Assembly (NCBI GenBank): GCA_964586885.1
Contig: CAZPID010000001.1
Span: forward strand, 24,080 to 82,117
From: an uncultured archaeon
Lineage (GTDB): Archaea; Aenigmatarchaeota; Aenigmatarchaeia; CG10238-14; SCSR01
Direction: 5' to 3'
Length of the DNA: 58,038 nucleotides
The notes beneath the pieces were generated by a model. That model worked only from the letters and a program-made list of their open reading frames with translations. It was not told where the DNA came from and did no database searches. A program made the translations under genes and the position numbers. Numbering within the stretch: the stretch's first letter is position 1; the number at the start of each line of letters is the position of its first letter. Shown piece after piece: positions 4,129-50,108 of the stretch.

Positions 4129-4365
4129 CTACCATTTTTTACAGACTTTTGCAAAAAGAACCCAAGAAAGAACTCCTGACCAAAAGATCAAGAAAGGAAT
4201 TATCACTGGTTCGATCCATTCTAAAACTGGAATCCATTCTATAACTGGAGTATGTTCAAACCCTAGAAAAATTCCTCCACCAATTATAAGACTTTTAATA
4301 CTCCAGATTAGCAATACCCAATAGGTAACTTTTTTCTTAAGACTTTGTAACATATTCCCGCACAA
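4129..4365 (-). CDS. small membrane protein
   Basis: 78 aa with two long hydrophobic segments (WVLLIWSIKSLIIGGGIFLGF; VIIPFLIFWSGVLSWVLF). Confidence 0.5.
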   Translation of the reverse strand: MCGNMLQSLKKKVTYWVLLIWSIKSLIIGGGIFLGFEHTPVIEWIPVLEWIEPVIIPFLIFWSGVLSWVLFAKVCKKW

Positions 4366-4993
4366 AATCGTAGATATTTTTAGCTATTTTTTTTCCAATT
4401 CCTTTAACTTTAATCATCTCTTCTATTTCAGCATTCACTAATTGTTGAATAGAACCAAACTTTTCTAATAATAGTTCAGCCTTTCTAGGTCCAATATTTG
4501 GAAAACTAGCAACTAGATATTTCATCCTTTGTGCTTTACTAAAATTTATCCTCTCCATTTCAGGAAGTCTAGGTTCATAATTTTCACATTTATCGTGGAA
4601 GTATTTTAAAAATATCGCAGTATCAAAAGGAGTTTCTGTAGAAACCATATTTATGATTCCTTGCTTACCATCTGGTGAACGTTTAAGTATTGTTCCAGCC
4701 ATACTAGAAAGATAAACTTCCTTCTTTAATCTTCTGTGCATCAAAGCCTCAGACATAAATCCCTCGATAATTATCGTTGAAACTTCAAAATTAAAACTCA
4801 TATTATACAGTTGGTTATTCAAATGTCCGCTTATTAGACTGCTAGCATAATCAGAAGCTTCCTTTCTTTCAAAAACCCAATTCCCGATCACGTAATCTCC
4901 AACTTCTAGCTTGGTAAATTCAATTGGCACATTCATATTTTCTAATTGTTTAGGAACGATGGATCTCTTTTCTCTATTATCAATTATTATCAA
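4337..4993 (-). CDS. xpf: XPF/ERCC4-family structure-specific nuclease (short archaeal form with HhH2)
   Basis: ERCC4 signature VGDYVI...VFERKEASDYASSL; C-terminal tandem helix-hairpin-helix FPNIGPRKAELLLEKFGS...VKGIGKKIAKNI. Confidence 0.8.
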   Translation of the reverse strand: MIIIDNREKRSIVPKQLENMNVPIEFTKLEVGDYVIGNWVFERKEASDYASSLISGHLNNQLYNMSFNFEVSTIIIEGFMSEALMHRRLKKEVYLSSMAGTILKRSPDGKQGIINMVSTETPFDTAIFLKYFHDKCENYEPRLPEMERINFSKAQRMKYLVASFPNIGPRKAELLLEKFGSIQQLVNAEIEEMIKVKGIGKKIAKNIYDFVREYVTKS

Positions 4994-5018: not shown

Positions 5019-5819
5019 CTAAATCCATGCTTTTAGTGTACTTTTCGCCTTAACTATTTTTTCCCGAATTCTTTTCTCCGTATTCGGATTGATCTCATAA
5101 CCAACTAATTTCCTGTTCAAATTAATACAGGCTTGTAAAGTTGTACCACTACCAAGACATGGATCAATTATTAGACCATTAGGATTACTACATTTTTTTA
5201 CGATATCCTCAACGATTTGATAATTGGTTTCTGTTAGATTAGTATTTTTTCCTAAATTATAAGGTCTTCTAATACTCTTAGCATCTTCAACATATTCTCC
5301 TTTGGCATTCCAGATTCTATTATCTAAAGGAGGCTTAACAAAATAAAAAATATGTTGATGTGAAATTGTAAAAGTATTTGGAGAATAGACACCAAAAGTA
5401 TAGTCCCAGATTATTTCGCGTAATCTAATAAAGCCCGCATCATAAGCTGGATATAAAACTTGGTTTAATTTGTCTTGTGTATGTCCTTCTCCTTCAAATT
5501 GATTTTTCTTATTTACTACTAAATCCTTAGCATTGACACATGCACTCCACCAAAAACATGAACCTCCTGGCATTAATTTCTTATAAATTTCTCTCATTCG
5601 AATCTCGCACCATTCCTCGAATTCTTCATCTGGAACTTCTACATATCCTTCAATAGCATCATCCGTTCTGTTGTAATTGCTAGCTTCTCCTTTAAAATTA
5701 ATTCCAAAAGGAGGATCAATTATACATAATTCAACGGTACCATTTTCTAGTTCATCCATATTTTTATTATCGTGGAAGTAGACTTTGTAGTCTTCACCTT
5801 CTAATATCATTAGATCCAT
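5019..5819 (-). CDS. DNA methyltransferase (beta-class, probably N6-adenine or N4-cytosine)
   Basis: Catalytic motif IIDPPFGI precedes the AdoMet motif IIDPCLGSGTT; ends STLKAWI; alternative start at ATG 5810. Confidence 0.8.
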   Translation of the reverse strand: MDLMILEGEDYKVYFHDNKNMDELENGTVELCIIDPPFGINFKGEASNYNRTDDAIEGYVEVPDEEFEEWCEIRMREIYKKLMPGGSCFWWSACVNAKDLVVNKKNQFEGEGHTQDKLNQVLYPAYDAGFIRLREIIWDYTFGVYSPNTFTISHQHIFYFVKPPLDNRIWNAKGEYVEDAKSIRRPYNLGKNTNLTETNYQIVEDIVKKCSNPNGLIIDPCLGSGTTLQACINLNRKLVGYEINPNTEKRIREKIVKAKSTLKAWI

Positions 5820-8800
5820 CTCTCCAGAGAAGGAGTGCCCAAAACGTTAGCCCAGCTAATCCCATAATCTTCTAAGATATTTTCAAGTTTTGCCTTTAGA
5901 CTCACATCAATCATTTTTTCCCATGCTATTTCTAAAGTCTTAAAAGCCGTAGGATCCTCAAAAGCAATTACATCTGAAGTATGTCCATTATATTCTTTAA
6001 CGTAAAGATATTGAACCTGATCTCCTCCTTTAATATCAGTTCCCAGATTTAAATTTGCTAAGATCGCTGCTCTAACATGAGCTGGATAGACCTTATATGC
6101 ATCTAATGGTCTATCCATTCCTTTTTTTAATGCTATATCAACCAAGGGCTGTTCTCTAAAATTTCTGATTATCTTAGTAATTTTTTCCCTAACTTCGTCC
6201 TTGTCTAATTTTCTCCTTACAATCAATTCAAGTAGATATTCCTGCGTTTTTTTAGTATATTCACTTTGATCTCCTCTAATAGCATCATATCCCTTAATTT
6301 CTAAAAAGTCACAGTCTCTACCTTTCCAAACACAGTGGCCTGCGTATCTCTTCTTCTTGCCACTGTAAAGGATCGTCTTATAAAATTTTTCAAACTTTAA
6401 AGAAATAGAAACATCACCTAACTTGTATTCATTTTTAAACCATTCCTTCATTAATTGATCTATCTTTTTTCCTATTTCCGGAGCTTCTTCAAATGGAACA
6501 TCTACTTGCAGACCGTCAGTATTATGAACTAAAATATCATTTGCAAAGAAGCACTCCGTGCCTGGAACAGATAAGTCATAAACATAACCATTGTATTCTA
6601 TAGACTCTATCTTTTTCGGATATCTAATTTTTAAATTATTATAGAAAGTTTTCTTCTTATACGGTTGTAATCTCCTATTTTTTCTATCTTGAATAAAACC
6701 AATTTTCTTCTGAAAAGTCTCCCTGTCTAAAACGACCGCGGCATAGCTGTAGGTATTACTGAATTTACCTTTATAATAATTACCTCCTATATCTTTTTTA
6801 ATCCCGCATACTATTCCGACGGACAATAATAATTCCTTTACCTGTTCAACTAGTTTTAAATTAATAGAACCATAGCCGGTATCTCCACCTACAACAATAT
6901 CTCCGTCTGCTGAAAACATTCCACGCAATAATGCACATTTATTTTCTTCGGTTTCCTCGAATATCCAATTTGGAATCTCCTTAGTTTTACTGGTTCCAAC
7001 AAACCCTAATTCTTTCATTAGGCTTTTAAGCATTTTAGACGAAATACATGAATCTCCTTCCTTACCAATCGAATAACCTCTACACCATTTTTCTAATACT
7101 AGAGGTCTAAGTAATTTAACTCCTAACTCAATTGAATCTATGCCTAAACTTTGATAAATATAATATGGCTTATTATCATAAGATCCGTCGCCAATCCAAT
7201 AACCAAAGAATGACATTAACTTTGGACTATATCCTTTGGTTCTAACTGGATATGAAGGAATGTATCTAGGAGACAGCAAACTATGCACATCTGTAGGTCT
7301 TACCAACTGTATCTCAATCGGAGTTTCTGTACAAGGTCTAGGTTTAGTAGAAAATATAGAATGATCTTCTGTAACGTCAACATAATCCATATTTGTAAGA
7401 CTAATTCTATAGACCTTCTTATTGACCTTATGCCTAATAATTTCTATTGCATTTGAAGTCTTAATTTTGCCATTGGAAGTATCACATGTTAGAAGTGGAA
7501 TTCGACATTGTTTTCTTTCTTTACCAAATTTATCTTTAAAAATTGTAGAAGGAATCAAATTCCATAATTTTTCAATTTCAATTTGTCCTATTTTCGTCCT
7601 GATTTTAGTGTCCTTGGTAACACTATCTCCATAGAGTACTGTAAATCCCAAATTTTCAAATTCCTGCTTCATATGTAGAAGTCCTTCTCTACCATATCTT
7701 GTTACTTCACCTCCAACGGACTTCGTATGGAATCTATTGTATCTGGAACTAAGATATCCATAAATTATTTCTGTTAAAGTTTTAATGGCTTCCTTTTCTT
7801 TTTCTACAATTTCATATTCATCGGTTCCTGGAACTAGATGTTCCAGTTTCTCCTCCACCTTATCTCTTAAAAGGATATATTTTCTACAGACTTTGGGAAA
7901 TAATCTATGATTATCGGGGGATAAATTAAAACTAATTATAATATTTGGATAATATCTAGACATATCAAAAACACTTACATTTTCTGAAAGCCCCTTATGT
8001 TCCTGCTCTAAGACCAAGGCTCCTCTAAAAATTTCTTCGTCTTTAGATGTCATAGATCTTAATATCAATCCCTCCTTTTTAGCATCTCTTATCATATCCG
8101 TATCAATTAGAACTGAACCTGCGAATCCTTTCTCAATATGTTCTATCCCTACCATATCTTTTAACCTCCTAAAATAATCTGAAATCCAATAATACTTTTT
8201 ATCAATTTGTACGGTATACCAAACGTCTTTCATGTTATATTTGACTAATTCTTCCGGAGCATTTTCAAACATTTCTTTTACCTTAGCACCTTTGTATGCT
8301 TCGTCCTTTGTAGTCAATTTTTCCTTTAGTGCGATCCTCTTTAGTTTTGGATATCTTGATATCTTGTGGTATTTGGTATATCCTATCATTAAGTCAAATC
8401 TCTCTAATCCATCAAAATCTAGAGGAAGAGATAACTTCTTAGTCCTGTTTAATAAATAATCAAAGTCATATTCAATGTTCCAACCTACCATCATATCCGG
8501 CATAACCTCATAATAACATTTGATAAAATTCGTAAGAAGTTCATCTTCTGTTCTAAAAACAAAAACGTTATTTTTACTATCTGAGTTCAAAGTAGGATGA
8601 TATACAAAACAGAAATATTCTTCCTTATAGGTATCATAAACTGTAATCGCACAAATTGGTTCTTTGGCATCATCAGCATTTGTAAATTTGGATGCTAAAA
8701 CTTCTATGTCCAGATACCATTTCCTTAGAGGAATATCAACGGTGGTTGGATGAATATCTCTACATCTAACATTTTCTAAATCATCGGTATTTATTTCGAC

Positions 8801-9091
8801 TCCAGAAAGAATTTTTTGGTCAATCATAAATCTTCTGGTATAAGGAATATCTGCTTCAAAATGGATAGCATATTTCGATCTTCTCTTTGGAACATCACCG
8901 GGTTCACTAACAACTATTTTCTTTAATTTTTCGTCATAAACGGACTGGTAAATTCCTTCATCATCTTTTACGAAAAAATAAGGCTTGAAGTCTATGACAT
9001 TGAATTTTATTTTTTTATTATCTATTGTCCTCAAATATCCATAAATTAAACTACCATTCGCGTGTAATGAAGTAAGAATCCCACGAACCAT
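5810..9091 (-). CDS. polB: family-B DNA polymerase, interrupted by an intein
   Basis: Exo motifs YLDIEVL, NIEYDFDYL and YNMKDV; motif A DMSRYYPNII; motif B KTLTEIIYGYL; motif C is split as LYGD-[intein]-TDGL. 1093 aa, or 725 aa after splicing. Confidence 0.93.
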   Translation of the reverse strand: MVRGILTSLHANGSLIYGYLRTIDNKKIKFNVIDFKPYFFVKDDEGIYQSVYDEKLKKIVVSEPGDVPKRRSKYAIHFEADIPYTRRFMIDQKILSGVEINTDDLENVRCRDIHPTTVDIPLRKWYLDIEVLASKFTNADDAKEPICAITVYDTYKEEYFCFVYHPTLNSDSKNNVFVFRTEDELLTNFIKCYYEVMPDMMVGWNIEYDFDYLLNRTKKLSLPLDFDGLERFDLMIGYTKYHKISRYPKLKRIALKEKLTTKDEAYKGAKVKEMFENAPEELVKYNMKDVWYTVQIDKKYYWISDYFRRLKDMVGIEHIEKGFAGSVLIDTDMIRDAKKEGLILRSMTSKDEEIFRGALVLEQEHKGLSENVSVFDMSRYYPNIIISFNLSPDNHRLFPKVCRKYILLRDKVEEKLEHLVPGTDEYEIVEKEKEAIKTLTEIIYGYLSSRYNRFHTKSVGGEVTRYGREGLLHMKQEFENLGFTVLYGDSVTKDTKIRTKIGQIEIEKLWNLIPSTIFKDKFGKERKQCRIPLLTCDTSNGKIKTSNAIEIIRHKVNKKVYRISLTNMDYVDVTEDHSIFSTKPRPCTETPIEIQLVRPTDVHSLLSPRYIPSYPVRTKGYSPKLMSFFGYWIGDGSYDNKPYYIYQSLGIDSIELGVKLLRPLVLEKWCRGYSIGKEGDSCISSKMLKSLMKELGFVGTSKTKEIPNWIFEETEENKCALLRGMFSADGDIVVGGDTGYGSINLKLVEQVKELLLSVGIVCGIKKDIGGNYYKGKFSNTYSYAAVVLDRETFQKKIGFIQDRKNRRLQPYKKKTFYNNLKIRYPKKIESIEYNGYVYDLSVPGTECFFANDILVHNTDGLQVDVPFEEAPEIGKKIDQLMKEWFKNEYKLGDVSISLKFEKFYKTILYSGKKKRYAGHCVWKGRDCDFLEIKGYDAIRGDQSEYTKKTQEYLLELIVRRKLDKDEVREKITKIIRNFREQPLVDIALKKGMDRPLDAYKVYPAHVRAAILANLNLGTDIKGGDQVQYLYVKEYNGHTSDVIAFEDPTAFKTLEIAWEKMIDVSLKAKLENILEDYGISWANVLGTPSLERWI
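6521..7624 (-). mobile_element. PolB intein (368 aa) with LAGLIDADG homing endonuclease
   Basis: In-frame insert inside YGD/TDG. It starts SVTKDTKI, has block B TEDHS and two LAGLIDADG motifs (FFGYWIGDGSY, LLRGMFSADGDI), and ends FANDILVHN followed by a +1 Thr. Confidence 0.85.
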
Positions 9092-9093
9092 TT

Positions 9094-10200
9094 TTACAGC
9101 CAGTCCTGTAAATTAGGAGCTTCTCTATATCCTCCCCATGCATCTTCAAAACCTTTTTCTTTTGCTTTGTCATAAATTTCTACAGCTTCTTCAACCCTTG
9201 GATATTTTTTGATATATTTTTGGAATATATCATCGTTAAGTGCTAACCAATTGGCAAATTTTTCTAATTCAAATAACTTGTACAGATTATGCAGATATCC
9301 ATAAAGATAATGTAAAGTTTCACTAAACTTTGTAAATTGAATTCCTTTAGATTCTGCATCCTTACAAAATGGACATATACATGGAAAAATGGAATAGTCA
9401 ATATTTAGCTTATCTGCACTATCTCCAGCTGGCTGATCAGTGATAAAGGGTGTCAACATTATCTTTCCTCTACCAGCTAACATAGAGAAACTAGAAGTAT
9501 CAGAAGTCAATTTGTTAAAATCTTTACTGAAATATGCTCCAGAAATTAAACCTTTTTGTCCACTCATAGCAAAAATATGCACATTTTTGATTCCTTTTTC
9601 TCTTAGAAAAGATAAGTGTAGTGCTGCAGCAACACTATCATTTGGAGGCCGTGGAGAACATGCAATGCCATCGAATAAATCTAAATGAGGTTCTATAACA
9701 TTTTTCCACCAAAACTTTATCTCTCGATAACTAATTCCATGTAAAACTCCATAGAGTTTAACATCATGTTTTTGTGCTTCTGATTTTATCTCTCTGATAC
9801 TTTTTTCAGTAAATCTTGCACAATCTTGGAAATGGCCATCTGAAATCGTTTCCGCATGTAAGCCTCTTGGAGGAAGATCTAAAATGAAAGCGATATCACA
9901 ATTTTGTGCCTGCCAATTAAAAACTGTAGAAGGATTAAATCTCTCTCCCTGACTCCACTGAGAATAGCCACCTGAATCTCCATACACCATTACGTCTTTC
10001 GGAACTTCATAGACATCTCTCCAGTGATCAAAACCGTATTGATTTTTATTTTGATAACCATAAAAATAGGAAATAAGTAAACTCTTTCTCCTTATAGGAT
10101 GATTTTCTTTCCACCATCTCATATCTACGCTACCTTGGGCCCAAGACTGTTTACTTGCAAACGTAAGTGCACCGGAAATGGCGGGAATATATTCAATCAT
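9094..10200 (-). CDS. dpdA: DpdA-like (TGT-family) DNA-guanine transglycosylase
   Basis: TGT catalytic motif YGDSGGYSQW; zinc site CICPFC...H; SDTSS motif; sits in an operon with preQ0 synthesis genes; ends NLQDWL. Confidence 0.8.
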   Translation of the reverse strand: MIEYIPAISGALTFASKQSWAQGSVDMRWWKENHPIRRKSLLISYFYGYQNKNQYGFDHWRDVYEVPKDVMVYGDSGGYSQWSQGERFNPSTVFNWQAQNCDIAFILDLPPRGLHAETISDGHFQDCARFTEKSIREIKSEAQKHDVKLYGVLHGISYREIKFWWKNVIEPHLDLFDGIACSPRPPNDSVAAALHLSFLREKGIKNVHIFAMSGQKGLISGAYFSKDFNKLTSDTSSFSMLAGRGKIMLTPFITDQPAGDSADKLNIDYSIFPCICPFCKDAESKGIQFTKFSETLHYLYGYLHNLYKLFELEKFANWLALNDDIFQKYIKKYPRVEEAVEIYDKAKEKGFEDAWGGYREAPNLQDWL

Positions 10201-10981
10201 TTCGTTTTTCTCCTAAAAAGTCTTTAATTTTTTTTACTAATCGTTCTTGGTTTTCTAACTCATAGTCCCATATTACTAAAGTATCAAAATTATATTTTTT
10301 ATAGAACTTTACCTTCCTATCTATTTCTTCTTCAGTGTGCCAATAACTCCCACAAAGTTCAATTAATAATCTTTTATCTTTATTTATAAAATCTGGGCAT
10401 TTATCAACGATAATTACTTTGCCATCTCCAACATAATCAAAAGGTAAGCTAAATTTTTTCAATAAGTCTATAAGTCTTCTTTCTAAATTATTAGGTCTAT
10501 TTTTTCTAGACTGTAAGATTTTAGGTAGACTTTTTTGAATACTACTAACCGTATGCATTGCTACTATAGAATTTTTCATTTGATGATCTCTATATTCTTG
10601 ACCTTTCCATAATTCTTTAAGTTTGTTTGATATTCTCGATCTAACCTCTGAAGTAAAAACAACATCATAGTTTCTAGGTTTACCTAATCTCGCCAAACTC
10701 ATTTTTTTCTTAGTCTCAATAGAATGTTTCCTATCTCTCATTGGAGAAGATAGACCCAACATTCTGACTCTGTGATTATCTTTCTGTTCGTCTGTTAATT
10801 TATGTCCTTTCATTCCTGAAACTTTACCTCTATGACTATCTACCTGCATCTGACGATAAATTGGATCTAACCACAAACTTTTTACAGTTTTAGAAAGTTT
10901 TTTGCTAGTTTCTGGATTATTCATAACCTCTTTCATCTTTAATGACATATAATTTCTATATTTCAAACTATTCTTCTTCAT
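10193..10981 (-). CDS. free-standing homing-endonuclease-like protein (NUMOD-like repeats + PD-(D/E)XK/Vsr-like nuclease)
   Basis: C-terminal CPDFINKDKRLLIELCGSYWH...LVIWDYEL. Paralogous to 30883..31641, 43489..44250 and to the QueE intein core. Wedged between dpdA and the SDR gene with overlapping stop/start codons. Confidence 0.65.
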   Translation of the reverse strand: MKKNSLKYRNYMSLKMKEVMNNPETSKKLSKTVKSLWLDPIYRQMQVDSHRGKVSGMKGHKLTDEQKDNHRVRMLGLSSPMRDRKHSIETKKKMSLARLGKPRNYDVVFTSEVRSRISNKLKELWKGQEYRDHQMKNSIVAMHTVSSIQKSLPKILQSRKNRPNNLERRLIDLLKKFSLPFDYVGDGKVIIVDKCPDFINKDKRLLIELCGSYWHTEEEIDRKVKFYKKYNFDTLVIWDYELENQERLVKKIKDFLGEKRND

Positions 10982-11673
10982 AGACTTTTGCCACCATCGA
11001 TAATTATGTTTGTACCTGTCATGTAATCAAATTCACTCTTAGTTAAATTAAAAATTACTTTTGCTATTTCATAAGCACTAGCTTCTCTCTTTTGTGGTAT
11101 CATATCTAAAACATCTTGTGGAAGAGGTGCGTTTCCACACAAATTAGTTTTTACCAAACCGGGAGAAATACAATTAACTCTAAACTGAGGATATTTTTTT
11201 GCTAAACATTTTGTAAAATGGATTAATGCAGCTTTTGTTACAGCATAATTAATAATGAAATCCTCATTTTCTATCCCAGAAGTGCTTCCTACATTAATAA
11301 TTCTTGCTCCTTTATTTAAAAATGGAATGAGATTACGAGTTAATTCCATTGGAGCAACTAAATTGACATTTAACAGATTCCACATCATAGCTGTGCTATA
11401 GTCTTTAAAATCTACCAAGTTAAGCATTCCAGCATTATTCACTAGAAGATCATACTTTCCATTAGCATAAATTGGAAGTTTTTCTATTTTTTGGACATTT
11501 TCAAAATTAAAGGGTATTCCTTTAACCCTTTTGAAGAGAGGATCTTCTAAAAATACTTTGTCAGTATCTCTAGAAATCGGTACTACATTCCAATGATGTT
11601 TTACTAAGATCCTAGTTATTTCATAACCTATTCCATGAGTTGCTCCTGTTACGATCGCTCTTTTCTTTAACAT
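10978..11673 (-). CDS. short-chain dehydrogenase/reductase (SDR)
   Basis: AIVTGATHGIGYE (TGxxxGxG), NNAG, catalytic YAVTKAAL (YxxxK). Confidence 0.85.
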   Translation of the reverse strand: MLKKRAIVTGATHGIGYEITRILVKHHWNVVPISRDTDKVFLEDPLFKRVKGIPFNFENVQKIEKLPIYANGKYDLLVNNAGMLNLVDFKDYSTAMMWNLLNVNLVAPMELTRNLIPFLNKGARIINVGSTSGIENEDFIINYAVTKAALIHFTKCLAKKYPQFRVNCISPGLVKTNLCGNAPLPQDVLDMIPQKREASAYEIAKVIFNLTKSEFDYMTGTNIIIDGGKSL

Positions 11674-11969
11674 TATTTAACCTCCAATCTCGCATCAGTA
11701 TCAGGAGACTCGTCCTCCTTTGGATGAAAATCTTTATCTGCTTGAGGTTTAATTTCAGTTACGATTGTAGGAATCCGTTTTGCTGAATTTTCAAGATCAT
11801 ATTTTTTTATTAAGATTATAAAAGTAGGATGTAAAAGCCTTTTATTTCCTGGATCAGCTTTCAACCATGTATAACAAAATGAACGAACAAACGAACCTTC
11901 TGAATCATTATTGGAAGTAGTATATGCTAAAGTATCAAGTTCTTCTAAGGTAGGATTAAGCTGGAACAT
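11673..11969 (-). CDS. hypothetical protein
   Basis: 98-aa track ORF coupled to both neighbours within the modification operon. Confidence 0.5.
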   Translation of the reverse strand: MFQLNPTLEELDTLAYTTSNNDSEGSFVRSFCYTWLKADPGNKRLLHPTFIILIKKYDLENSAKRIPTIVTEIKPQADKDFHPKEDESPDTDARLEVK

Positions 11970-13062
11970 GAGTAGGATCCCTATATTCTGAATAATGACT
12001 TTGGAATTTTGCGTCTAAAATATTGTCTAAGCCATTCTTCTGCGCATAATGTTCTGCAAACCAAGCATAACTCCAAAAGCATCCTGGACATAATTGTTTA
12101 CCACCATAAATTTTATCTAGGATTTCCTTTCGACCGTCTTTCCAACCTAAGCGGAAGACTGAAATTCTCTCTTTCATATAGTTAGAATAAGAACAACTTC
12201 TTAAAGTTCCATCTGCTTCGATATCAATTATTAATCCTGAATTGCAGTGCCACAACATTTCTGGTGCTAGATCCACACCATGTTCAAAATATTCAATCGG
12301 ATTTTGTACCATTACTTCACCACTTTTTACCATATCGGCTATCTCATGCATTACGTTTTTTAAACTAACATGATCCTGCTCTCTAAACAGGAAACTAGGC
12401 ATAAGATCATCAGAAAAGAAATCATATTTTTCATCTTTTTTATGTTCAACGAAATTAAGTCCAGCCCAAATTTCTTTAGATGTCATATATCTCAGAAGTT
12501 CAGGAATCTTTTTATAATTTTGTCTATGAATTGTAATGGTCCCTTGGACATCTGGAACGCCATGATTCTTAAACCATTGTAATTGTTCTAGCCCCCAAAT
12601 ACTTTTCGTATCAATATCCTTATCTCCTGTTGTTCCCCCCATAATATCGATCCCGCAACTAATATTGTATAAGCCGGCTTCTACCATAGGTAATCTTAAT
12701 TTCTGATATTGTGGTTCAACAAAAGTAGAATACATTGCATACCTTCCAAAATATCCAAAATCTTTTAACGCTCTTATTAGTTCTATTATCCAAGGATAGA
12801 GCAATACTTCATTTCCTAAAATTAAGAAAAATTTTACTCCCATATCACTTAGAATATTAAAAGCTCGAATCCACTCCTGTGGTTTTAAAAGGCCTTCCTC
12901 AGGGACCACGTCTTTACTGCCACAATAACTACATTTGCGAGGACAATATCTTTGAATAAACAAGCATGCATATCTTGGATTATCTGCTCTCTTTATTTCA
13001 AATCTCTTGACATTTTCTCCAAGAACATTGATATCATTTTTATAAATACTACCCGATTGCAT
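11956..13062 (-). CDS. radical SAM enzyme with SPASM/twitch-like C-terminal domain
   Basis: CPRKCSYC (CX3CX2C), GGE-like ILGNEVLL, C-terminal HCNSGLIIDIEADGTLRSC and CPGC. Confidence 0.8.
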   Translation of the reverse strand: MQSGSIYKNDINVLGENVKRFEIKRADNPRYACLFIQRYCPRKCSYCGSKDVVPEEGLLKPQEWIRAFNILSDMGVKFFLILGNEVLLYPWIIELIRALKDFGYFGRYAMYSTFVEPQYQKLRLPMVEAGLYNISCGIDIMGGTTGDKDIDTKSIWGLEQLQWFKNHGVPDVQGTITIHRQNYKKIPELLRYMTSKEIWAGLNFVEHKKDEKYDFFSDDLMPSFLFREQDHVSLKNVMHEIADMVKSGEVMVQNPIEYFEHGVDLAPEMLWHCNSGLIIDIEADGTLRSCSYSNYMKERISVFRLGWKDGRKEILDKIYGGKQLCPGCFWSYAWFAEHYAQKNGLDNILDAKFQSHYSEYRDPTHVPA

Positions 13063-13900
13063 TCCTCATCAATTCCTCATAACTCCGATACCATAATTTA
13101 TTTCTAAGCTTACCTTTAAGTTCTTGTAAAGCTTCTGGAATAAATCTCTGTCTAAAATAAAGTGAATCGCCATATTTCTGTCCATCTTCAATTCCGTATT
13201 TTTCCTTTGCAATTAAATGCGCTAATCTTCTATTGCAACAGCAGCCACATTTTCCTTCAGTAGCCATTAAAGTTCTAAAATCGACTGGATTATCTTCAAT
13301 ATCAATCGGAGCTAAATCACAGGACCAAGTATAATTATAAATCCAACCAAATCCATTATCATGTCCCCATTTTAAGATTTGTGGTTTGTCCATCTCATTT
13401 TCTGGTGATATAACTTTCGGAATAAATTTGTTGCAACCGTATTCTAACATGTGACTAAATCTGTCTAAGAACTCCTTAGTATTGTCTTTGTAGCTCCACT
13501 CACTAGCATTGGTTCCTAATGTGATATATTCTGCTTCAATATGTTCTGCATAAGATGCTGCTAATGCTAAAAATACCACATTTCTAGCTGGAGTCCAAAT
13601 TTCATCAATCGTTGTTGCAGACTTCCTCAAGCTGTCCATTCCTTCTGGAACAGGAATATTCTCATTAGTTAAACATGAATCTTCTCCAAATACTGGAGTC
13701 TTTACAATTTCTAATTTAATTGGATAACCTTCTTCTTGTAATTTGCTAGCAATAAATCTACAGCTTGCTTTTTCTCCTCTCTCAGATCTTTGACCAATAG
13801 AAAAATGCATTAGATATACTTCATATCCTTTCTTAAGCATCATCAACGAATTGGTTATAGAATCCATTCCACCAGATGTTACACATACAGCTTTTTTCAT
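13049..13900 (-). CDS. queC: QueC-family PP-loop ATPase (7-cyano-7-deazaguanine synthase-like), paralogue 1
   Basis: VTSGGMDS PP-loop, TPARNVVFLALAA, C-terminal Cys cluster WSCD...GKCGCCCNRR; 283 aa. Confidence 0.75.
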   Translation of the reverse strand: MKKAVCVTSGGMDSITNSLMMLKKGYEVYLMHFSIGQRSERGEKASCRFIASKLQEEGYPIKLEIVKTPVFGEDSCLTNENIPVPEGMDSLRKSATTIDEIWTPARNVVFLALAASYAEHIEAEYITLGTNASEWSYKDNTKEFLDRFSHMLEYGCNKFIPKVISPENEMDKPQILKWGHDNGFGWIYNYTWSCDLAPIDIEDNPVDFRTLMATEGKCGCCCNRRLAHLIAKEKYGIEDGQKYGDSLYFRQRFIPEALQELKGKLRNKLWYRSYEELMRNAIG

Positions 13901-14052
13901 TTTTCTGATTCCTCCTGTACATAACTTGACATGATTTCATCAAATTCTTTGTCAGTTATTTTACATAATTTTTCATAGAATGCCTGAGCTGATTCTTTAC
14001 ATTCTGGATATCTTAAAACTATTGATCTAACTAAATAACTAACTCTCACCAT
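13897..14052 (-). CDS. small ORF (51 aa, below the track cutoff)
   Basis: ATG at 14052..14050 overlaps the queC-2 stop, and the TGA overlaps the queC-1 ATG (ATGA); MVRVSYLVRSIVLRYPECKESAQAFYEKLCKITDKEFDEIMSSYVQEESEK. Confidence 0.4.
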   Translation of the reverse strand: MVRVSYLVRSIVLRYPECKESAQAFYEKLCKITDKEFDEIMSSYVQEESEK

Positions 14053-14804
14053 ATAGCCACTCCATGTTTCTTTAATACTGCTTTCATCATATCTTCTCTG
14101 GCTCCTACATATTTTCCATCGTTGAGACCTCTTATGTATTGTGTTTTCATCAATCTACTTTTTAATGGATTCCTGACAAAAGAAATAGGACCATCTCCAT
14201 CTAGATTACTGGCTTCTAAAGCAAACCACATCCTTATACATGCTGCACATCTTCCACATGGATCTTTAGTACCACTAAAGCAAGAATAAGTACGTTTTAA
14301 TAATTCTATCCCGTTCTCGTGGTTAGACAAAACATAATCTACAATTCGTTCCTTAGTAATATTGGCAAAAGGAGAAATTATCGTAATATTTTTTTTATCA
14401 GCTTCACTTAAAGTCATTTGTAAAAGTCTATTAAATTTACTAGTCCTATCTCCAATATTTGATTCTCCTAACTGAACATTCTGCAAATAGATATTTCCTC
14501 CATCAGACAAATAATAACATGCTATACCTGCTAAAAATAAGTTTCTATAAGGAATGTGCGAATCCTTTTTTTCATATTCTCCTAAATCGACTCCTTTATG
14601 TATCTGAAAATCTACATCTAACTGTGATATTAATTTATGAACTGCCAATATCTCACGACTTTGATAACGACTACCTAGAGCAACATAAAGTGCTAAAACT
14701 TCTTCTTTTTTAAATTTCTTCAAAGCTATCAATAATGCTGCTAGGCTGTCAACTCCTCCTGATATCAGAACTATTGCTTTTTTAGACAAGACGTATTTCC
14801 CCAC
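14046..14804 (-). CDS. QueC-family PP-loop ATPase, paralogue 2
   Basis: LISGGVDS PP-loop, IPYRNLFLAGIA, YSCFSG...PCGRCAACIRM zinc motif, plus a roughly 50-aa C-terminal extension. Confidence 0.75.
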   Translation of the reverse strand: MGKYVLSKKAIVLISGGVDSLAALLIALKKFKKEEVLALYVALGSRYQSREILAVHKLISQLDVDFQIHKGVDLGEYEKKDSHIPYRNLFLAGIACYYLSDGGNIYLQNVQLGESNIGDRTSKFNRLLQMTLSEADKKNITIISPFANITKERIVDYVLSNHENGIELLKRTYSCFSGTKDPCGRCAACIRMWFALEASNLDGDGPISFVRNPLKSRLMKTQYIRGLNDGKYVGAREDMMKAVLKKHGVAIW

Positions 14805-15396
14805 TTCTGATCATTTGATAAGCTCTCATTTCTAATTCTCTGTCATCCCTGAACCTTTCTGAAGCTGAACTAATTTTAACTATTGTTTGTGGATCTTCTA
14901 TTCCTCTGAAGAACATACATGTATGCAGACCAACAGTATATATCAAACATGCATGAGGCCTTACATGCTTCATAAAAAGGTTTCTGGCTTTCGCTGCATA
15001 ATCTTCCTGCAACTGTGGAAATTTTCCTAGTTCTACCAAGAACCTAGGTATCTTTGAAAGCCCTACTACTTTCTTCTCCCCTTGCTGATCTGGAATAAAT
15101 ATTAACCATACCTTTATAATCGCAGGAAGAAAATGGTGTGGGCACAACATCTTAACGGTCACAGGACCTACACATTCCATAGCGTCTGATATTGTTGGAA
15201 ACATTGTTCCCAAGTGTTTAACGGCATCTTTTTCATTATATGGATTAGTAAACTCTTTAAGCCAATTAGATATCCTGCCTGGAGAATCTTTAAAGTTTGG
15301 ATCATTTAAATCAATATTTAAAGACTTTAATAATTCCAATGATTTGTCATGGATCTTATCTCCATCTCCATATTCTATGTTCTCTTTTATTTCCAT
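14782..15396 (-). CDS. folE: GTP cyclohydrolase I
   Basis: MLCPHHFLP, VVGLSKIPRFLVELGKFPQLQED, HTCMFFRG. Confidence 0.8.
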   Translation of the reverse strand: MEIKENIEYGDGDKIHDKSLELLKSLNIDLNDPNFKDSPGRISNWLKEFTNPYNEKDAVKHLGTMFPTISDAMECVGPVTVKMLCPHHFLPAIIKVWLIFIPDQQGEKKVVGLSKIPRFLVELGKFPQLQEDYAAKARNLFMKHVRPHACLIYTVGLHTCMFFRGIEDPQTIVKISSASERFRDDRELEMRAYQMIRSGEIRLV

Positions 15397-17160
15397 CTAT
15401 GTTCCTCTTTCATTGCCATAAAGCATGATCTGTAACCTTGGACTATATCTGATTCCATATTTTTTACATTCTTCAACTAGCCAAATACTATTTCTAGTAA
15501 TCGTCTTAGCATCTATACCCAAAGGCATGAAATAGGTCTTACTTGTCGGTATTTGAAATGGTTGGAGAAAGTCGTCAAAAACTTCCTTGATATCTTCTTT
15601 ACGACCAATAACAAACTTAAATTTAGTTCTGCTGTTCCTATTAAACCATTTTAGAGCAGGTGCAATAATCCTTTTATCTCTTGGCATTTTAGAATTAGAA
15701 AGTTTTGGACTTACGTCATAATATATTGGAAATGGCTCCTGTTCAAAAATTATCGTACCATTAGTTTCAATTTCATAACTTCTTATCCAAGGAAATTCCT
15801 CCTTAACTTGTATGAGCAGTTCTGCCAAACCTTCTTGAACTAAAGGTTCTCCTCCAGTAAAAATCACATGTGCATTTGCAAAGGCCTGAATCCTTTTCAT
15901 AATATCTTCAGAGTTCATTGGTACAAATTCAGTAGGTAAATTTCTCATCTTAATTAACTCTGGTACTGCATATGGAGTATCACAATTATGAGCTAAAATA
16001 CCATTTGCATAATAGTTATGATTTGAAGTCCTAAAATTGTAAACTGTAAGTTGGTAGCATTCTGGATAGTGTTTAAAACCTTCATTATGTCTACAATTCT
16101 TGATTCTTCTAGCTCCCATTCTGACTAATTGTTTAGGATTTGAAACTTTAGAAATAGATGTTACCCTTGTTCCATTGGTAATAAATCTATTAACTCTATC
16201 AATCATATTATTTCTACCATTATTATTTTTTTGGTATATTCTTCCGTTAACATCAAGCATTAAACACTCCCATCCAAAATTTTTGAAAAATATTTTTCTT
16301 TCCTCCGACCATCTTTCATCTCTATCCATATAAGTAGGATCATAAAGTTCAATAATTTTTTTCTGTCCTATGACTTTAAAGTCTGGATTTCTAAATTTTT
16401 TTATTTTGTTACCTATCCATAATTTAGCATTTCCTACATATTCTATCGGTAAATTATTCATTTCGAATTCATTAATTGCAATTTTTTCTAATCCGCTTGG
16501 TCTATGTTTATGAGACTTCATATTTTTTACCACTATTTCAGGATCGAACATTGGATTATGAATTTTTTTACAATTACTCTGATTTTTTCTCCATTCTTCT
16601 GTACGCAAATATGGTTTAATTTTTCCACTACCATATCCTTTCCTAACAGAATCTGCTACCTTTTTAACTATATTTTTATCTTTCATTGGATTATAATTTT
16701 TCATCTTCCAAGAAAGATAAGTTTCTCTAGGTAATCTATCTATTAATTCATCTATCTGTAATTCTTTTGCTCTTACATATTGTCCTCGATCTATAGAATA
16801 AATTGGATGCTCTTTAGTTACAAACAATGAAATGCCATGATCAAATGTTATCTTAATTATTTCAAGACCAGATACTTCTCTTCTGAAAATATCTTGTACG
16901 ACCTGTAATTCTAATTCACCTTTACTACCTTTGCCTAAAATTCTCTCTCCAATTTTAATATCTTTAGCCTTTTTAGTTCCGTTTTCACTATAGATTCTAG
17001 TATTTGGTATTAAACAATACCCACAAAATAAGTTACACCCATAGAACCTGATAAAAGTTGTTGGTTCACCAACAAAATAACCTTCTCCTTGTATTGAAGA
17101 AAATATCTCTGAGATTGCATATTTTAGATCTTTCCTTAAATTTATTTTTTGCGTCTCCAT
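15397..17160 (-). CDS. queE: 7-carboxy-7-deazaguanine synthase (radical SAM), interrupted by an intein
   Basis: [33 protein letters not shown]-[intein]-CDTPYA; 587 aa, or 243 aa after splicing. Confidence 0.85.
15985..17016 (-). mobile_element. QueE intein (344 aa) with PD-(D/E)XK/Vsr-like endonuclease core
   Basis: Starts CLIPNTRIY, block B VTKEHPIY, ends [11 protein letters not shown] with a +1 Cys. The core ([35 protein letters not shown]) resembles the free-standing HEG at 10193..10981. Confidence 0.8.
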
Positions 17161-17549
17161 CCCTTTACCTCGATTCCATATTTAGAAGTTTCTTGTATAT
17201 CGATACCAATTCCAGCAGCTTTTGGAAATGCCTTAAATAATGAAGATAGCATATTTTTCGTAATCGTTTCTGTATCTGCTTCTCCTATATTTCCTCTATA
17301 CGAGTCTAAAATTGGTTCTATTAACTGCTTCATTGTTTTATAATCTATCCAATCGCTTTGTAATAGTTCAACTTTAATTTTAACATTTTCGTGTCCATGC
17401 GTATCACAACATTTTTTATCTGTCAATTCAGATCTATCAGAAATATAATGAGTAAAAGAAATGGTTCCTGTATAATGCCTTACTTGCAGAAATTCTACAT
17501 CTGTATGCTCTTTTAATTTTTGATAAACCGTCTGATCAAAAACGGACAT
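17142..17549 (-). CDS. queD: 6-carboxytetrahydropterin synthase (PTPS/QueD family)
   Basis: 135 aa; [16 protein letters not shown] (Cys + HGH zinc/catalytic motif); operon context. Confidence 0.65.
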
Positions 17550-18052
17550 TATGTTTCCTCCGTTTTAATTACTCTTAAAACTTTATTTTTTTCTTTTATC
17601 CCGACCACACTAAATCCTTCTAAGGCTGGCTGGTTTCCTTTTTCAATAGCTACCTTCATCTGATCTCCTAACGTTCTTCCATCTGCTGTTGTTACAATAT
17701 GAGGCATAAATATTTCCTCTATTGTAGAAATCTCAGCCTCCTTTGCTGTTAAAAGAGATTTGAGATAATGAAATAAAATTCGATAAGATCTTTTTTCGTC
17801 ATAATAACTTTTTCGACCTCGCTTTCCTTCTTCAATATATGGTACAGTAATTTTAATGAGAAATGCCAACTCATCAGTTTTCCTGATAATAAATTCTACA
17901 AAACTTTGTTCTGGACCAGCTTCAGTCCACCGCTTTTCATTGATCCTGAATTTTTTGAGCATTCTATTAATATCTTCTTTAGATTTTTCCACTGATACTG
18001 ATGTATAACGGTAGATATCTGTACTAAGTTTTACCAACATGAACCTCCTCAT
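17549..18052 (-). CDS. hypothetical protein
   Basis: 167-aa track ORF between primase and queD; no motif recognised. Confidence 0.55.
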   Translation of the reverse strand: MRRFMLVKLSTDIYRYTSVSVEKSKEDINRMLKKFRINEKRWTEAGPEQSFVEFIIRKTDELAFLIKITVPYIEEGKRGRKSYYDEKRSYRILFHYLKSLLTAKEAEISTIEEIFMPHIVTTADGRTLGDQMKVAIEKGNQPALEGFSVVGIKEKNKVLRVIKTEET

Positions 18053-19004
18053 ACCACCAGTTTGTCCAGTTGCAGTTACAATCTATCAATTCATGTAATC
18101 GTTTTGTACTCATTGGAAATAATTTTTTCTTCAATATTTGTTTAGTATGATAACGGGTAACTTTTTCATCAAAATCACTCCAATTTAATTTTTTACAGAT
18201 ATCTACAATTTTATCCTCCTTATAACCTAACCAACCTAATTCTGCTACAAATGTAGTTCTAATAGAATGTGGAGGTTCTCTATCTTGTTCTAAAATTGAA
18301 ACAATACAAGGACGAATCAAACTCTTAAGCATTGTGAGAACATCTTCTGGAATACTATGGGATTGAGCTTGAAAAATATATTCATGCATGCCTGTCGCTC
18401 TATACATTAAATTAAAATCGACGATTTCATTCAATTTATACCTAGGTTTTGATCCGCCTATAAAAAATTTTGAACTAAATTGTGCTACTTCCTGAGCACT
18501 CCAATTTATAAAATCATCTGGCAAATAAGTACAATATTTTCCAGTCTTAGGGTGAATACTACCCGGAACCCTTACAAGTCTATTAATATCGCCTCTGATT
18601 TGCTGATCAAGATGTTCGATTCCTTCCGTCAACTGCTGAAACGCTTGCATTAACAAAACTTTACCCGTTTCAATATTTGGAGGGATATAGTCTTCAACCA
18701 ATATATAAAAATGAAAACCCTTTGATCCAGAAAAAATAACATGGAAATCTAATCCCTTATCTTTTAATTGCTTATACAGTTTTTTTGCAGAGTGCAATGA
18801 TTCTTCTAAATTCTTGGCATCAATGTCAAACCATAATTTATCAATGATCTTTGCATCATCATATAGACTAACAAATACGTCTGTAAATCCATTTTGCATC
18901 TCTACGAAGTTCTTAAATTCTTTAAAGTTTTTGACTCTTGTCCTGAAGGGATTTCCAACATCTCTAGGAGTCTTACTAAAAAGAATGGTGGTAATTGAAT
19001 CCAT
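18024..19004 (-). CDS. archaeo-eukaryotic primase (AEP, PriS-like)
   Basis: Motif I LWFDIDA, motif II SGSKGFHFYIL, motif III LVRVPGSIHPKTG. Confidence 0.75.
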   Translation of the reverse strand: MDSITTILFSKTPRDVGNPFRTRVKNFKEFKNFVEMQNGFTDVFVSLYDDAKIIDKLWFDIDAKNLEESLHSAKKLYKQLKDKGLDFHVIFSGSKGFHFYILVEDYIPPNIETGKVLLMQAFQQLTEGIEHLDQQIRGDINRLVRVPGSIHPKTGKYCTYLPDDFINWSAQEVAQFSSKFFIGGSKPRYKLNEIVDFNLMYRATGMHEYIFQAQSHSIPEDVLTMLKSLIRPCIVSILEQDREPPHSIRTTFVAELGWLGYKEDKIVDICKKLNWSDFDEKVTRYHTKQILKKKLFPMSTKRLHELIDCNCNWTNWWYEEVHVGKT

Positions 19005-19005
19005 T

Positions 19006-19734
19006 TTACATCCCCTTTATTGGTGCTATTATGTAAGTTATTTCTAAGTCTTCACCTAAGTAAGAAATGGAAACTGGCTCCTGGGTCAAAACTAGCCATA
19101 CTGGACCTGCCAATAATTCTACCACCCTTTGAAGTTTTTCTACATCTAAAATTACCTCTCCTTCAGCGGATTGTGACTTTTGTGTATATTCTAACTTCCT
19201 GACATAAGAAGAAACTGCACTTTTTGCTTCTGCTTTAATCTCGCTATCTGAGTAATTCAGTCTGATTCTATCCGTTCCAATATTGTCTAATTGCGTTATC
19301 TCTAGTTTGTATGCAACTGCTATATCAGCTTTCTCGGTGATATATCCATATTGTGTCCTCTTCACTGTATCAAAAGGTAATGACGTTTCAACTTTCTCTA
19401 AACCTTTCTCCTCATAGACCTCGTTTTTACCAGTCAATGTCACTTTGCCATCCTTAAAGATTAATTCTATTGTCTTATCTCCTTTGAAAGATTTAGAAAG
19501 TCTATTCAACATGTCATTCGCTCTTAATTTAACTTCTCCAATCGGATCATAAGATTCAAAATAATCTTTCTTAAACATTCCAAAGGCTAACATCGTAATT
19601 CCAGCGTCTCTATTTGCTACATAAACACCGTCATCTTTAAAATCTAAAAGCAGTTCTTCAATTTTAGACTTTCCTCCTTTTGAAATACTTGCCAATTCTA
19701 ATAACCGTTGTAACTTAGTTGGTTCTATTCTCAT
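19006..19734 (-). CDS. PCNA-like sliding clamp
   Basis: 242 aa. PCNA-like pattern DGVYVANRDAGITMLAFGMFKKDYFESY and C-terminal VSISYLGEDLEITYIIAPIK (cf. the canonical ...yLAPr ending). Next to the primase, and RFC is encoded in the same window. Confidence 0.7.
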   Translation of the reverse strand: MRIEPTKLQRLLELASISKGGKSKIEELLLDFKDDGVYVANRDAGITMLAFGMFKKDYFESYDPIGEVKLRANDMLNRLSKSFKGDKTIELIFKDGKVTLTGKNEVYEEKGLEKVETSLPFDTVKRTQYGYITEKADIAVAYKLEITQLDNIGTDRIRLNYSDSEIKAEAKSAVSSYVRKLEYTQKSQSAEGEVILDVEKLQRVVELLAGPVWLVLTQEPVSISYLGEDLEITYIIAPIKGM

Positions 19735-19857
19735 GCGCTCATTATCACCTCCTTTTTAGGTCCGCCGACCTCCTCTCCATTTGTGGTACTCGCTGTACCA
19801 AATTGTTTTTCCAATCCTGGTTTCTCCAAGTGCATAATATCTCTTATCTCATCAAAG

Positions 19858-46198: not shown

Positions 46199-47155
46199 AT
46201 GTTAGTAGAAAAATATAGACCTCAAACATTTGATGAAATCTTAGGTCAAGATAAAATTAAAGGAGGACTAAAAAATTTAATCAATAGAACTAAACATGGT
46301 GAAAAATTACCGCACATGCTCTTCTCAGGTCCTCCGGGATGTGGTAAGACCGCTATGGCAGCAGTTTTAGCAAAAGCTTTGGAAATAGATTTTGTAGAAT
46401 ATAATGCCAGTGATAATAGAAGGATAGAGTTTGTGAGAGAAGAACTTAAAAGTTTAGCAATTGTTACTGGCAGGAGGATAGTTTTGTTGGACGAAGCTGA
46501 TGCAGTAACGCATGATGCACAACATGCACTAAGAAGAATTATTGAAAAAGCAACATGTACTTTTATCTTAACATGTAATGAAGATTGGAAGATCATAGAT
46601 CCGATAAAGTCCAGATGCATTAACTTTCGTTTTGAAAGGCTGTCAAGGAAAAATTTATTGGAATTAATAACCAAGGTTTTAAAGTCTGAAGGAGTGATAA
46701 TAGAGAAGACCGAAGATGCTAAAAAAGCATTTGAATTATTGTTGGAATATTGTAATGGAGACGCCAGAAAGATTTTAAATATGATTGAAGGTCTGATTAA
46801 CGAAAATAAAGAATTTACACCTGGAAATATTCAATTGTTGATGCCAACCAATTTTGCTCAGGAAATACTAGATCTGGCTCTACAAGGTAATTTTACAGAA
46901 GCCTTAAAAAAACTTGAAGATACCTATATTTACAATCAATTAGATGCTAATCTGACAATTAAAAATCTGTATAGCGCTTTAAAGGATTTACCAGCAGAGA
47001 ATATAATAAAATTCAAGCTATTTGATAAATTGTCTGACATTGAAAGGAATATCAAAATAGGATGCCATCCATTAATACAGTTTGCTTCATTTCTGTCAGT
47101 AGTCTATATGTCACCACAAATGATCAAAGCGGAGGTAAGCGAGAATGTCAATTAA
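46199..47155 (+). CDS. rfcS: replication factor C small subunit
   Basis: VEKYRPQTFDEILGQ, SGPPGCGKT, VLLDEADAVT, KSRC. Confidence 0.9.
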   Translation: MLVEKYRPQTFDEILGQDKIKGGLKNLINRTKHGEKLPHMLFSGPPGCGKTAMAAVLAKALEIDFVEYNASDNRRIEFVREELKSLAIVTGRRIVLLDEADAVTHDAQHALRRIIEKATCTFILTCNEDWKIIDPIKSRCINFRFERLSRKNLLELITKVLKSEGVIIEKTEDAKKAFELLLEYCNGDARKILNMIEGLINENKEFTPGNIQLLMPTNFAQEILDLALQGNFTEALKKLEDTYIYNQLDANLTIKNLYSALKDLPAENIIKFKLFDKLSDIERNIKIGCHPLIQFASFLSVVYMSPQMIKAEVSENVN

Positions 47156-49939: not shown

Positions 49940-50108
49940 ATACACAGGAAAAAGGATATTTATTGATATGAATGCCTATGAAATACTTTCTACAGTAAAG
50001 AAACATATCAAGGAGAAAAAAGTAGGAACAAAGAAAAGACCTTCTCTTGCAGATGCTATTAGATATTTAAAAGATAATGGTTCGCAAGGAATCAAATTTA
50101 AGAAATGA
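49911..50108 (+). CDS. RHH-like small protein
   Basis: 65 aa; KRIFIDMNAYEILSTVKKHI...SLADAIRYL. Confidence 0.35.
   Translation: MGVQKSGGSRYTGKRIFIDMNAYEILSTVKKHIKEKKVGTKKRPSLADAIRYLKDNGSQGIKFKK

Follow-up and report, generated by a model that had tools for sequence, protein, structure and literature searches.

The QueE gene and its insert

A 58,038-nucleotide stretch of DNA from an uncultured archaeon (contig CAZPID010000001.1, positions 24,080 to 82,117; hereafter the window) holds a gene for QueE, a radical S-adenosylmethionine (SAM) enzyme of the deazaguanine pathway, that is interrupted in frame by a predicted intein. The precursor gene occupies 15397..17160 on the minus strand, as do all of its parts, and encodes N-extein, intein and C-extein in a single open reading frame (ORF) of 587 amino acids (aa) plus stop. 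The N-extein (aa 1-48, 17017..17160) ends in C42-N-L-F-C46-G-Y48 (codons 17017..17037), in which C42 and C46 supply cysteines one and two of the radical-SAM motif. The C-extein (aa 393-587, 15400..15984) starts with Cys+1 (C393)-D394-T395 and holds the GGEP and IETNGT motifs of QueE. According to the translation of the ORF, the insert between them comprises residues 49-392, i.e. 344 aa, at window positions 15985..17016, with the codons of Cys1 (C49) at 17014..17016, of Asn392 at 15985..15987 and of Cys+1 at 15982..15984. The junctions in the precursor read IRFYGC42NLFC46GY48/C49LIPNTRIY and ILAH391N392/C393DTPYA (the slash marks the splice point), in agreement with the ORF string flanking the insert, where CLIPNTRIY follows the upstream junction and CDTPYA the downstream one. 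Deleting the insert in silico yields a 243-aa QueE with a restored CX3CX2C-DT.

The insert itself is tripartite. Its N-terminal HINT (Hedgehog/intein) part (aa 49-140, 16741..17016) contains block A with Cys1 and block B with T115-K-E-H118, and its C-terminal HINT part (aa 326-392, 15985..16185) contains a 15-residue block F and block G, ILAH391-N392. A homing-endonuclease insert (aa 141-325, 16186..16740) separates the two. The guanine-plus-cytosine (GC) content of the intein is 28.2% versus 34.0% for the window.

Evidence for an intein at the third cluster cysteine

Both intein models of NCBIfam are passed by the insert, the N-terminal one (TIGR01445) with 28.9 bits at a cut-off of 24.5 and the C-terminal one (TIGR01443) with 18.9 bits at a cut-off of 15.6, and in Pfam searches Radical_SAM and, under its gathering cut-off, Intein_splicing match in the precursor. 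The closest solved intein by sequence is NrdJ-1 (8ubs, E 7.8e-5), which aligns through blocks B, F and G: block B has the form TxxHP (TPDHP in NrdJ-1), and blocks F and G share T-S-x-H-N-[FY]-[FY]-A-N-x-I-L-x-H. In an alignment of 40 full-length homologues at 26-37% identity, no variation is seen at C42, C46, C49, H118, H391, N392, C393 and D394, whereas T115 is conserved in at least 90% of the sequences. An AlphaFold2 model of the full precursor has a mean predicted local distance difference test score (pLDDT) of 85.1. When this model was compared with solved structures by Foldseek, the closest intein by fold was gp41-1 (6qaz, E 6.9e-7), and further matches were the NrdJ-1, NpuDnaB, Ssp DnaB and Mtu RecA inteins and the hedgehog HINT domain, with E values of 7e-7 to 1e-4 and template-modelling (TM) scores of ~0.55-0.61. 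Judged by these sequence features, residues 49-392 are a canonical class-1 intein that separates Tyr48 from the third cysteine of the QueE CX3CX2C motif.

Over their whole length the exteins align with QueE proteins that have no insert. Searched against the PDB, the spliced sequence retrieves QueE of E. coli (6nhl, E 2.5e-16), B. subtilis (5tgs/5th5, 7.1e-12) and B. multivorans (4njg, 9.2e-8), and the QGEG...CX3CX2C-D-T/S segment aligns across the splice junction with these solved enzymes; the radical-SAM region of the spliced product, 30 residues in length, pairs with CPVGCAWCDT of E. coli and CDYSCSWCDS of B. subtilis. Foldseek matches the precursor model to B. subtilis QueE 5th5 (E 1.3e-6, TM 0.59-0.62) and also to 6nhl. 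A database search with the spliced sequence gave 7628 matches, mostly uninterrupted. The best 120 of these 7628 homologues are uninterrupted proteins of 210-316 aa that share 35-46% identity over 93-99% of the 243-aa product; many of them are named QueE and stem from metagenome-assembled genomes (MAGs) of Nitrososphaerales, Thermoproteota or Bathyarchaeia or from bacteria, and 113 of the 120 have a contiguous CX3CX2C-D-[T/S/A]. QueE alleles with an empty site are thus the rule. The extein is best described as a divergent QueE-like protein, an assignment based on homology together with gene context.

These results bear out the first-pass annotation of the locus, which had proposed an intein at the third cysteine of the radical-SAM motif of QueE. 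The insert coordinates, the length of 344 aa and the 243-aa remainder that it gave all match the ORF translation exactly; the intein nature of the insert is borne out by Cys1, T115xxH118, H391-N392 and Cys+1, by the two NCBIfam models and by the HINT fold in the structural model, and the site by the end-to-end alignment of the exteins. The annotation had named an ordinary domain insertion lacking the intein blocks as the alternative; the residues that a class-1 intein needs for splicing are all present and conserved.

Distribution of the QueE-site intein

With the precursor as query, a word-indexed search returned 133 matches, mostly radical-SAM proteins of 400-660 aa with HINT or intein Pfam domains, some of which also bear HNH, HNH_3, LAGLIDADG or Hom_end domains. 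An exhaustive phmmer search with the intein alone against 1.84 billion cluster representatives gave 817 matches at E <=1e-3, 152 of them at E <=1e-10. Pattern analysis of both match sets identified at least 134 representatives with the arrangement C(-3)-x-x/C1...H-N/C(+1)-D-[T/S/A], i.e. with an insert at the same site; Cys1 is found in 134 of 134 because the search pattern requires it, and a cysteine at -7 is also found in 112 of the 134. The lengths of the same-site inserts range from 136 to 412 aa and include mini-inteins (136-194 aa) as well as endonuclease-bearing forms, among them HNH or LAGLIDADG types. A mobile intein allele that has persisted for long would be expected to show such a mixture of sizes and endonucleases. 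Two homologues were inspected and both reside on phage-like contigs: one contig carries DnaB, PolA and RecA, with a QueD-type (PTPS) gene adjoining the gene of QueE and intein, and the other is 210 kb long.

The first-pass annotation knew of no intein allele in QueE and called for a database check. Within the library searched, inteins in conjunction with QueE, deazaguanine, queuosine or radical SAM led to no paper describing one; the allele is by no means rare, however, given the at least 134 same-site representatives. QueE-site inteins are abundant yet undescribed in metagenomic viral DNA. A paper on Campylobacter phage IBB_35 was considered as a report of a QueE intein and rejected, its inteins being in genes other than the radical-SAM gene, and an Asgard-virus preprint in which MoaA and inteins are both named proved to have no bearing on the matter. 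No close relatives at the DNA or protein level were found in scans of GenBank phage, IMG/VR or GTDB genomes. A tblastn search of the precursor against 50,697 GenBank phage records matched 62 records, none covering >=80% of the query, and a blastn search of window positions 13000-20000 against GenBank phages gave no match. Campylobacter phage matches that start at aa 386 were considered as a possible intein remnant and rejected, the CP220 gene being an ordinary 264-aa QueE with no intein.

Intein-related segments also occupy the same third-cysteine site in other radical-SAM families, namely in P0345 (Rv2578c), P0340 (B12-binding), P0255, P0267 and P0331. P0345 matches the NCBIfam model NF038136 at 3.5e-27 and has its intein at CAYNCIY/C...VHN/C. 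DegT-type aminotransferases have related inteins or endonuclease domains as well. The significant matches to the intein extend to metagenomic QueC-like proteins (P0283, P0305, P0370 and P0381), in which HINT or endonuclease segments of this kind are thus also present, so that the family of mobile elements has hosts in no fewer than two enzymes of the deazaguanine pathway. In the B12-binding radical-SAM protein P0333 the insertion point is seemingly the second cysteine (GCPFQ/C...SHN/CSFC), and P0368 has the same C-terminal junction, SHN/CSFC. Inteins thus seem to favour the cluster loop as a whole and not a single codon in it. Five further proteins (P0021, P0076, P0330, P0343 and P0361) start inside the endonuclease domain and run through HN/CDT into the QueE C-extein. 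They may reflect truncated contigs or gene-calling artefacts; alternatively, they may represent a split-gene or internal-start arrangement.

The predicted endonuclease domain and its free-standing paralogue

The middle part of the intein begins with helical modules, the 'NPM' repeats, and continues with a putative nuclease core of the Vsr-like/PD-(D/E)xK kind. Fifteen homologues share the motif S-x-L-E...P-D-F...K-x-I-E, the invariant residues of which correspond to E225, D260, K268 and E271 of the precursor; the conserved motif includes no histidine. An AlphaFold2 model of the domain alone has a pLDDT of 87.9. Its best named Foldseek match is the catalytic domain of I-Bth0305I (3r3p, probability 0.99), with TM scores of 0.34 when normalized to the query and 0.58 to the 98-residue target, followed by further PD-(D/E)xK nucleases: R2 retrotransposon proteins (9dou, 9nl2), the endonuclease of which is of this type, FAN1/VRR-NUC and PvuRts1I. 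On the basis of the model, the middle part of the intein is probably a Vsr-like/PD-(D/E)xK homing endonuclease with fold-level similarity to I-Bth0305I. SET-domain and dehydroquinase matches that the endonuclease profile gave in the PDB were rejected, with E values >=0.1 and unrelated folds.

A free-standing paralogue of 262 aa is encoded at 10193..10981 on the minus strand, between a tgt-like ORF and a gene of the short-chain dehydrogenase/reductase (SDR) type. The intein endonuclease aligns with this protein by hhalign with a probability of 97.8 (E 1.1e-12). The paralogue also gives a weak match to the NCBIfam Vsr model TIGR00632 (E 3.7e-4, below cut-off) and has N-terminal 'NPE/SPM' helical repeats resembling the 'NPM' repeats of the intein. 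Free-standing homologues of the domain are found in databases as well, and the ORF at 10193..10981 is possibly a free-standing homing endonuclease.

Several points stand against the assignment of the intein domain as an active homing endonuclease. The fold match to I-Bth0305I is modest (E 0.02), the isolated domain matches no Pfam family at E values up to 10, and its profile retrieved nothing relevant from PDB sequences. Moreover, the paralogue keeps an IELCGSYWH motif, whereas the intein copy lacks the histidine of the final WH; because this residue is absent from the intein and kept in the paralogue, the intein endonuclease may be inactive.

Genomic neighbourhood

The QueE gene is embedded in a block of genes of related function on its own strand. 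Directly downstream, in the same operon, is FolE, GTP cyclohydrolase I (14782..15396; Pfam PF01227 E 3.2e-28, together with the NCBIfam FolE models). On the other side is a probable QueD, a 6-carboxytetrahydropterin synthase-like protein (17142..17549), which is weakly matched by TIGR03367 (E 0.0028, 18 bits) and the stop of which overlaps the QueE start by 19 nucleotides (nt). Two QueC-like genes follow at 13049..13900 and 14046..14804; Pfam QueC matches them with E values of 7.5e-36 and 2.9e-23, and NCBIfam TIGR00364 matches below its cut-off. Further along are an extra radical-SAM protein of 368 aa (11956..13062) with weak MoaA/PqqE-like matches and the tgt-like ORF, also of 368 aa (9094..10200), with a faint match to TgtA, the archaeosine tgt; the SDR gene is at 10978..11673. 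The tgt-like ORF could encode a DpdA-like DNA transglycosylase; among the neighbouring genes, PADLOC and PHROGs searches detected families of QueC, clamp loaders and proteases and no DpdA. Taken together, the gene block suggests a pathway for 7-deazaguanine modification of DNA.

The window contains a second intein. A gene for PolB, a family-B DNA polymerase of 1093 aa (5810..9091, minus strand), is interrupted by an intein of 368 aa (~6521..7624) with a LAGLIDADG endonuclease (Pfam Intein_splicing 5.9e-14, LAGLIDADG_3 4.4e-10). This intein is of the Ser1/Thr+1 type and lies inside motif C (YGD/S490...VHN857/TD), a classical insertion point of PolB inteins. In addition to PolB, the replication and repair genes, which resemble archaeal or eukaryotic ones, comprise an XPF/ERCC4-HhH nuclease, a primase small-subunit/prim-pol protein, a PCNA-like ORF (a weak match) and two RFC-like clamp-loader genes; such genes are located at 4337..4993, 18024..19734, 46199..47155 and 50105..51052. 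Because of these replication genes, the GC content of 34% and the best QueE relatives, which come from Nitrososphaerales and Thermoproteota MAGs, the window may derive from an archaeal virus or element.

Predicted splicing, its possible regulation and alternative readings

The reading that we favour, with a probability of roughly 0.85, is that QueE contains a splicing-competent class-1 intein with a Vsr-like (PD-(D/E)xK) homing endonuclease. Its anatomy, conservation, fold, homologues and empty-site alleles are seen in sequences and models; that it splices, cuts and homes is deduced from them. The reaction would proceed in the following manner: an N-S acyl shift at Cys49 would generate a thioester, which Cys393 (+1) would then attack, and cyclisation of Asn392 would release the intein. 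The ligated 243-aa QueE would read C42-NLF-C46-GY-C393-DT, i.e. C42-x3-C46-x2-C393, and the +1 nucleophile would therefore become the third ligand of the [4Fe-4S] cluster. Mature QueE, together with the products of the neighbouring FolE, QueD-like and QueC-like genes, would supply 7-deazaguanine precursors, probably for DNA modification in a virus-like element with replication genes of archaeal type. The intein would be a selfish mobile element, the endonuclease of which cuts intein-less QueE alleles and spreads the element by homing; its persistence may be favoured by residing in an essential catalytic loop that is restored only by precise excision at the protein level.

That the splicing nucleophile at +1 doubles as the third cluster ligand had already been proposed in the first-pass annotation, and it stands, as C393 completes CX3CX2C once the insert is removed. 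Two corollaries drawn there are less firm. The precursor had been considered unable to assemble the cluster, but it retains a contiguous C42-x3-C46-x2-C49 with Cys1 of the intein in place of the third cysteine; because Cys49 completes the linear motif, a cluster-free precursor should be regarded as conjecture rather than as established. The dependence of the entire deazaguanine pathway on splicing, in turn, assumes that no QueE is supplied by the host.

The same contiguous motif gives rise to the alternative that survives best, which is possible although the odds are clearly against it: splicing may be gated by redox state, metal or cluster, and the intein would then serve as a post-translational switch on deazaguanine synthesis and not just as a parasite. 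By analogy, the CX3CX2C of the precursor could bind metal or form a disulfide. A Cys46-Cys49 disulfide, or Fe-S or Zn ligation of Cys1, would keep the nucleophile inactive under oxidising or cofactor-poor conditions, so that QueE, which is oxygen-labile, would not mature unless the cell is reducing and replete with iron. The combination of a cysteine at -3 with Cys1 (C46-G-Y-C49) suits such a mode, and so do the invariance of C42, C46 and C49 in the 40 aligned sequences and the frequent cysteine at -7 of the same-site inteins. Furthermore, several radical-SAM families that are unrelated to one another carry inteins in the cluster loop, and a precedent is provided by the MoaA intein of P. abyssi, where a disulfide between Cys-3 and Cys1 is reported to block splicing until it is reduced (PMC3922620, PMC10663303). 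However, mature QueE needs C42 and C46 in any case, which accounts in full for their conservation and makes it uninformative on regulation. Inteins generally occupy the most conserved catalytic motifs for selfish reasons, as does the PolB intein of the same window in YGDTD, and the diversity of endonucleases at the QueE site, alongside mini-inteins, points to mobility rather than to a switch selected by the host. A still bolder generalization, which we regard as speculative and distinctly improbable, is that the radical-SAM cluster loop is a recurrent and possibly functional docking site for inteins, in which occupancy by Fe-S cluster, metal or disulfide gates the first splicing step. If this analogy held, the redox and iron state of an infected cell would control QueE maturation and, with it, deazaguanine hypermodification of viral DNA, and the single case of Pab MoaA would be extended to a large viral family with a natural cofactor-gated intein switch.

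Other observations weigh against the preferred reading of a splicing-competent intein. Splicing, endonuclease activity and QueE activity are all deduced from sequence and model. The NCBIfam QueE models were all matched below their equivalog cut-offs, the best being TIGR03963 with 93.5 versus 260.1 bits. Pfam Intein_splicing (PF14890) reaches 30.3 bits, under its gathering cut-off of 35.8, and Pfam PT-HINT and Hint likewise match under their gathering scores. Class-1 inteins usually have an Asp at a position of block F where the QueE intein has an Asn (VYNF, compared with TYDIQ in NrdJ-1). Finally, the estimate of selection stems from one comparison, that of the window gene with a 97.6%-identical allele (locus L006), and is based on 42 substitutions in total. 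Here, the ratio of non-synonymous to synonymous substitution rates (dN/dS) is 0.21 for the whole gene, 0.11 for the C-extein (dS 0.12, 13 synonymous differences), 0.37 for the whole intein (dS 0.042, 8 synonymous differences) and 0.29 for the endonuclease domain (dS 0.053, 5 synonymous differences), while the N-terminal HINT part has 4 non-synonymous versus 1 synonymous change.

The subthreshold Pfam score, the Asn in block F and the higher dN/dS of the intein relative to the C-extein, with the excess of non-synonymous changes in the N-terminal HINT part, are what one would cite for a decayed, non-splicing insertion, which would leave an inactive QueE of 587 aa and an element that relies on the QueE of its host or on none. 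We consider decay highly improbable, since the nucleophiles, TxxH and HN have all been kept and do not vary among relatives with 27-37% identity, the Asn is no private mutation but the family consensus (VYNLE), present in most relatives, and the ORF of the precursor is uninterrupted in three assemblies. The dN/dS of the C-extein, moreover, indicates strong purifying selection, which is unexpected for a dead product. The ratios, small as the counts are, are compatible with a functional enzyme and an intein that is less constrained and not decaying. The dS of the intein is lower than that of the C-extein, possibly a sign that homing or gene conversion has homogenised the intein, again with small counts.

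A chimeric contig or a gene-calling artefact that fuses the QueE gene with an unrelated HINT gene is effectively refuted, because the 587-aa gene is found with the same in-frame layout in two independent assemblies, namely Logan SRR12068623, which is 99.9% identical in nt sequence, and ENA ERZ23500257, which is 97.6% identical and has its synonymous differences scattered over the gene, and more than 130 diverged homologues share the architecture.

Implications

What is new is QueE as the host of an intein; the kind, an intein at a radical-SAM cluster cysteine, is already known. Inteins in catalytic motifs are common, and the radical-SAM cysteine site is already represented in a curated NCBI family and apparently in Pab MoaA, so that the general picture of inteins is unchanged. 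The case draws attention to the Fe-S cluster loop of several radical-SAM families as an intein hot spot in viral DNA, and it brings in a little-studied homing endonuclease of Vsr-like type whose free-standing paralogue is encoded by the same genome. As the splicing nucleophile and the +1 residue are both prospective cluster ligands, the QueE intein is a good test case for splicing that is conditional on redox state or cofactor, and its importance would rise substantially only if gating of this kind were shown. A practical consequence concerns annotation: pipelines mislabel such genes ('LAGLIDADG family homing endonuclease', 'organic radical activating enzyme'), which can hide viral deazaguanine pathways.

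Comparison with known systems

The closest functional parallel is the Pab MoaA intein. MoaA belongs to the radical-SAM enzymes and has a CX3CX2C in its N-terminal part, and the redox trap of its intein is reportedly the subject of a study by Callahan et al. 2011. The designation 'Cys-3/Cys1', read together with the MoaA motif, implies that this intein would reside at the same third-cysteine site. Its host is, as in the QueE case, an oxygen-labile radical-SAM enzyme with a [4Fe-4S] cluster, and the C-x-x-C1 arrangement corresponds to C46-G-Y-C49 of QueE; the two differ in that MoaA is encoded on a hyperthermophilic archaeal chromosome, whereas QueE is encoded in a virus-like element. In MoaA the native disulfide with extein Cys-3 is reported to block the first step of splicing under oxidising conditions and is interpreted as protecting an oxygen-labile enzyme (PMC3922620, PMC10663303).

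Curated families of intein-interrupted radical-SAM proteins are likewise found in NCBIfam: NF038136 (intein-containing Rv2578c radical SAM) and NF045703 (intein-containing tetraether lipid synthase Tes). Against the profile of NF038136, the QueE intein covers positions 76-334 (E 2.8e-6). The extein of that family is of the Rv2578c type, however, and the QueE precursor, with 26.5 bits versus a cut-off of 700, is not a member; no model for an intein-containing QueE is among the NCBIfam matches of the precursor.

The endonuclease domain is best compared with the 'EDxHD' Vsr-like family of I-Bth0305I (3R3P), of which Dassa et al. 2009 and Taylor et al. 2011 reportedly gave descriptions. Both occur inside inteins and as free-standing proteins in phage-like DNA, and their resemblance is confined to the predicted fold, with no detectable sequence similarity. 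The nearest solved HINT domains belong to a different setting: NrdJ-1 and gp41-1 are split or mini inteins from genes of replication and nucleotide metabolism, and their solved chains comprise 128-151 residues with no endonuclease, whereas the QueE intein is contiguous, bears an endonuclease and resides in a cofactor-binding motif.

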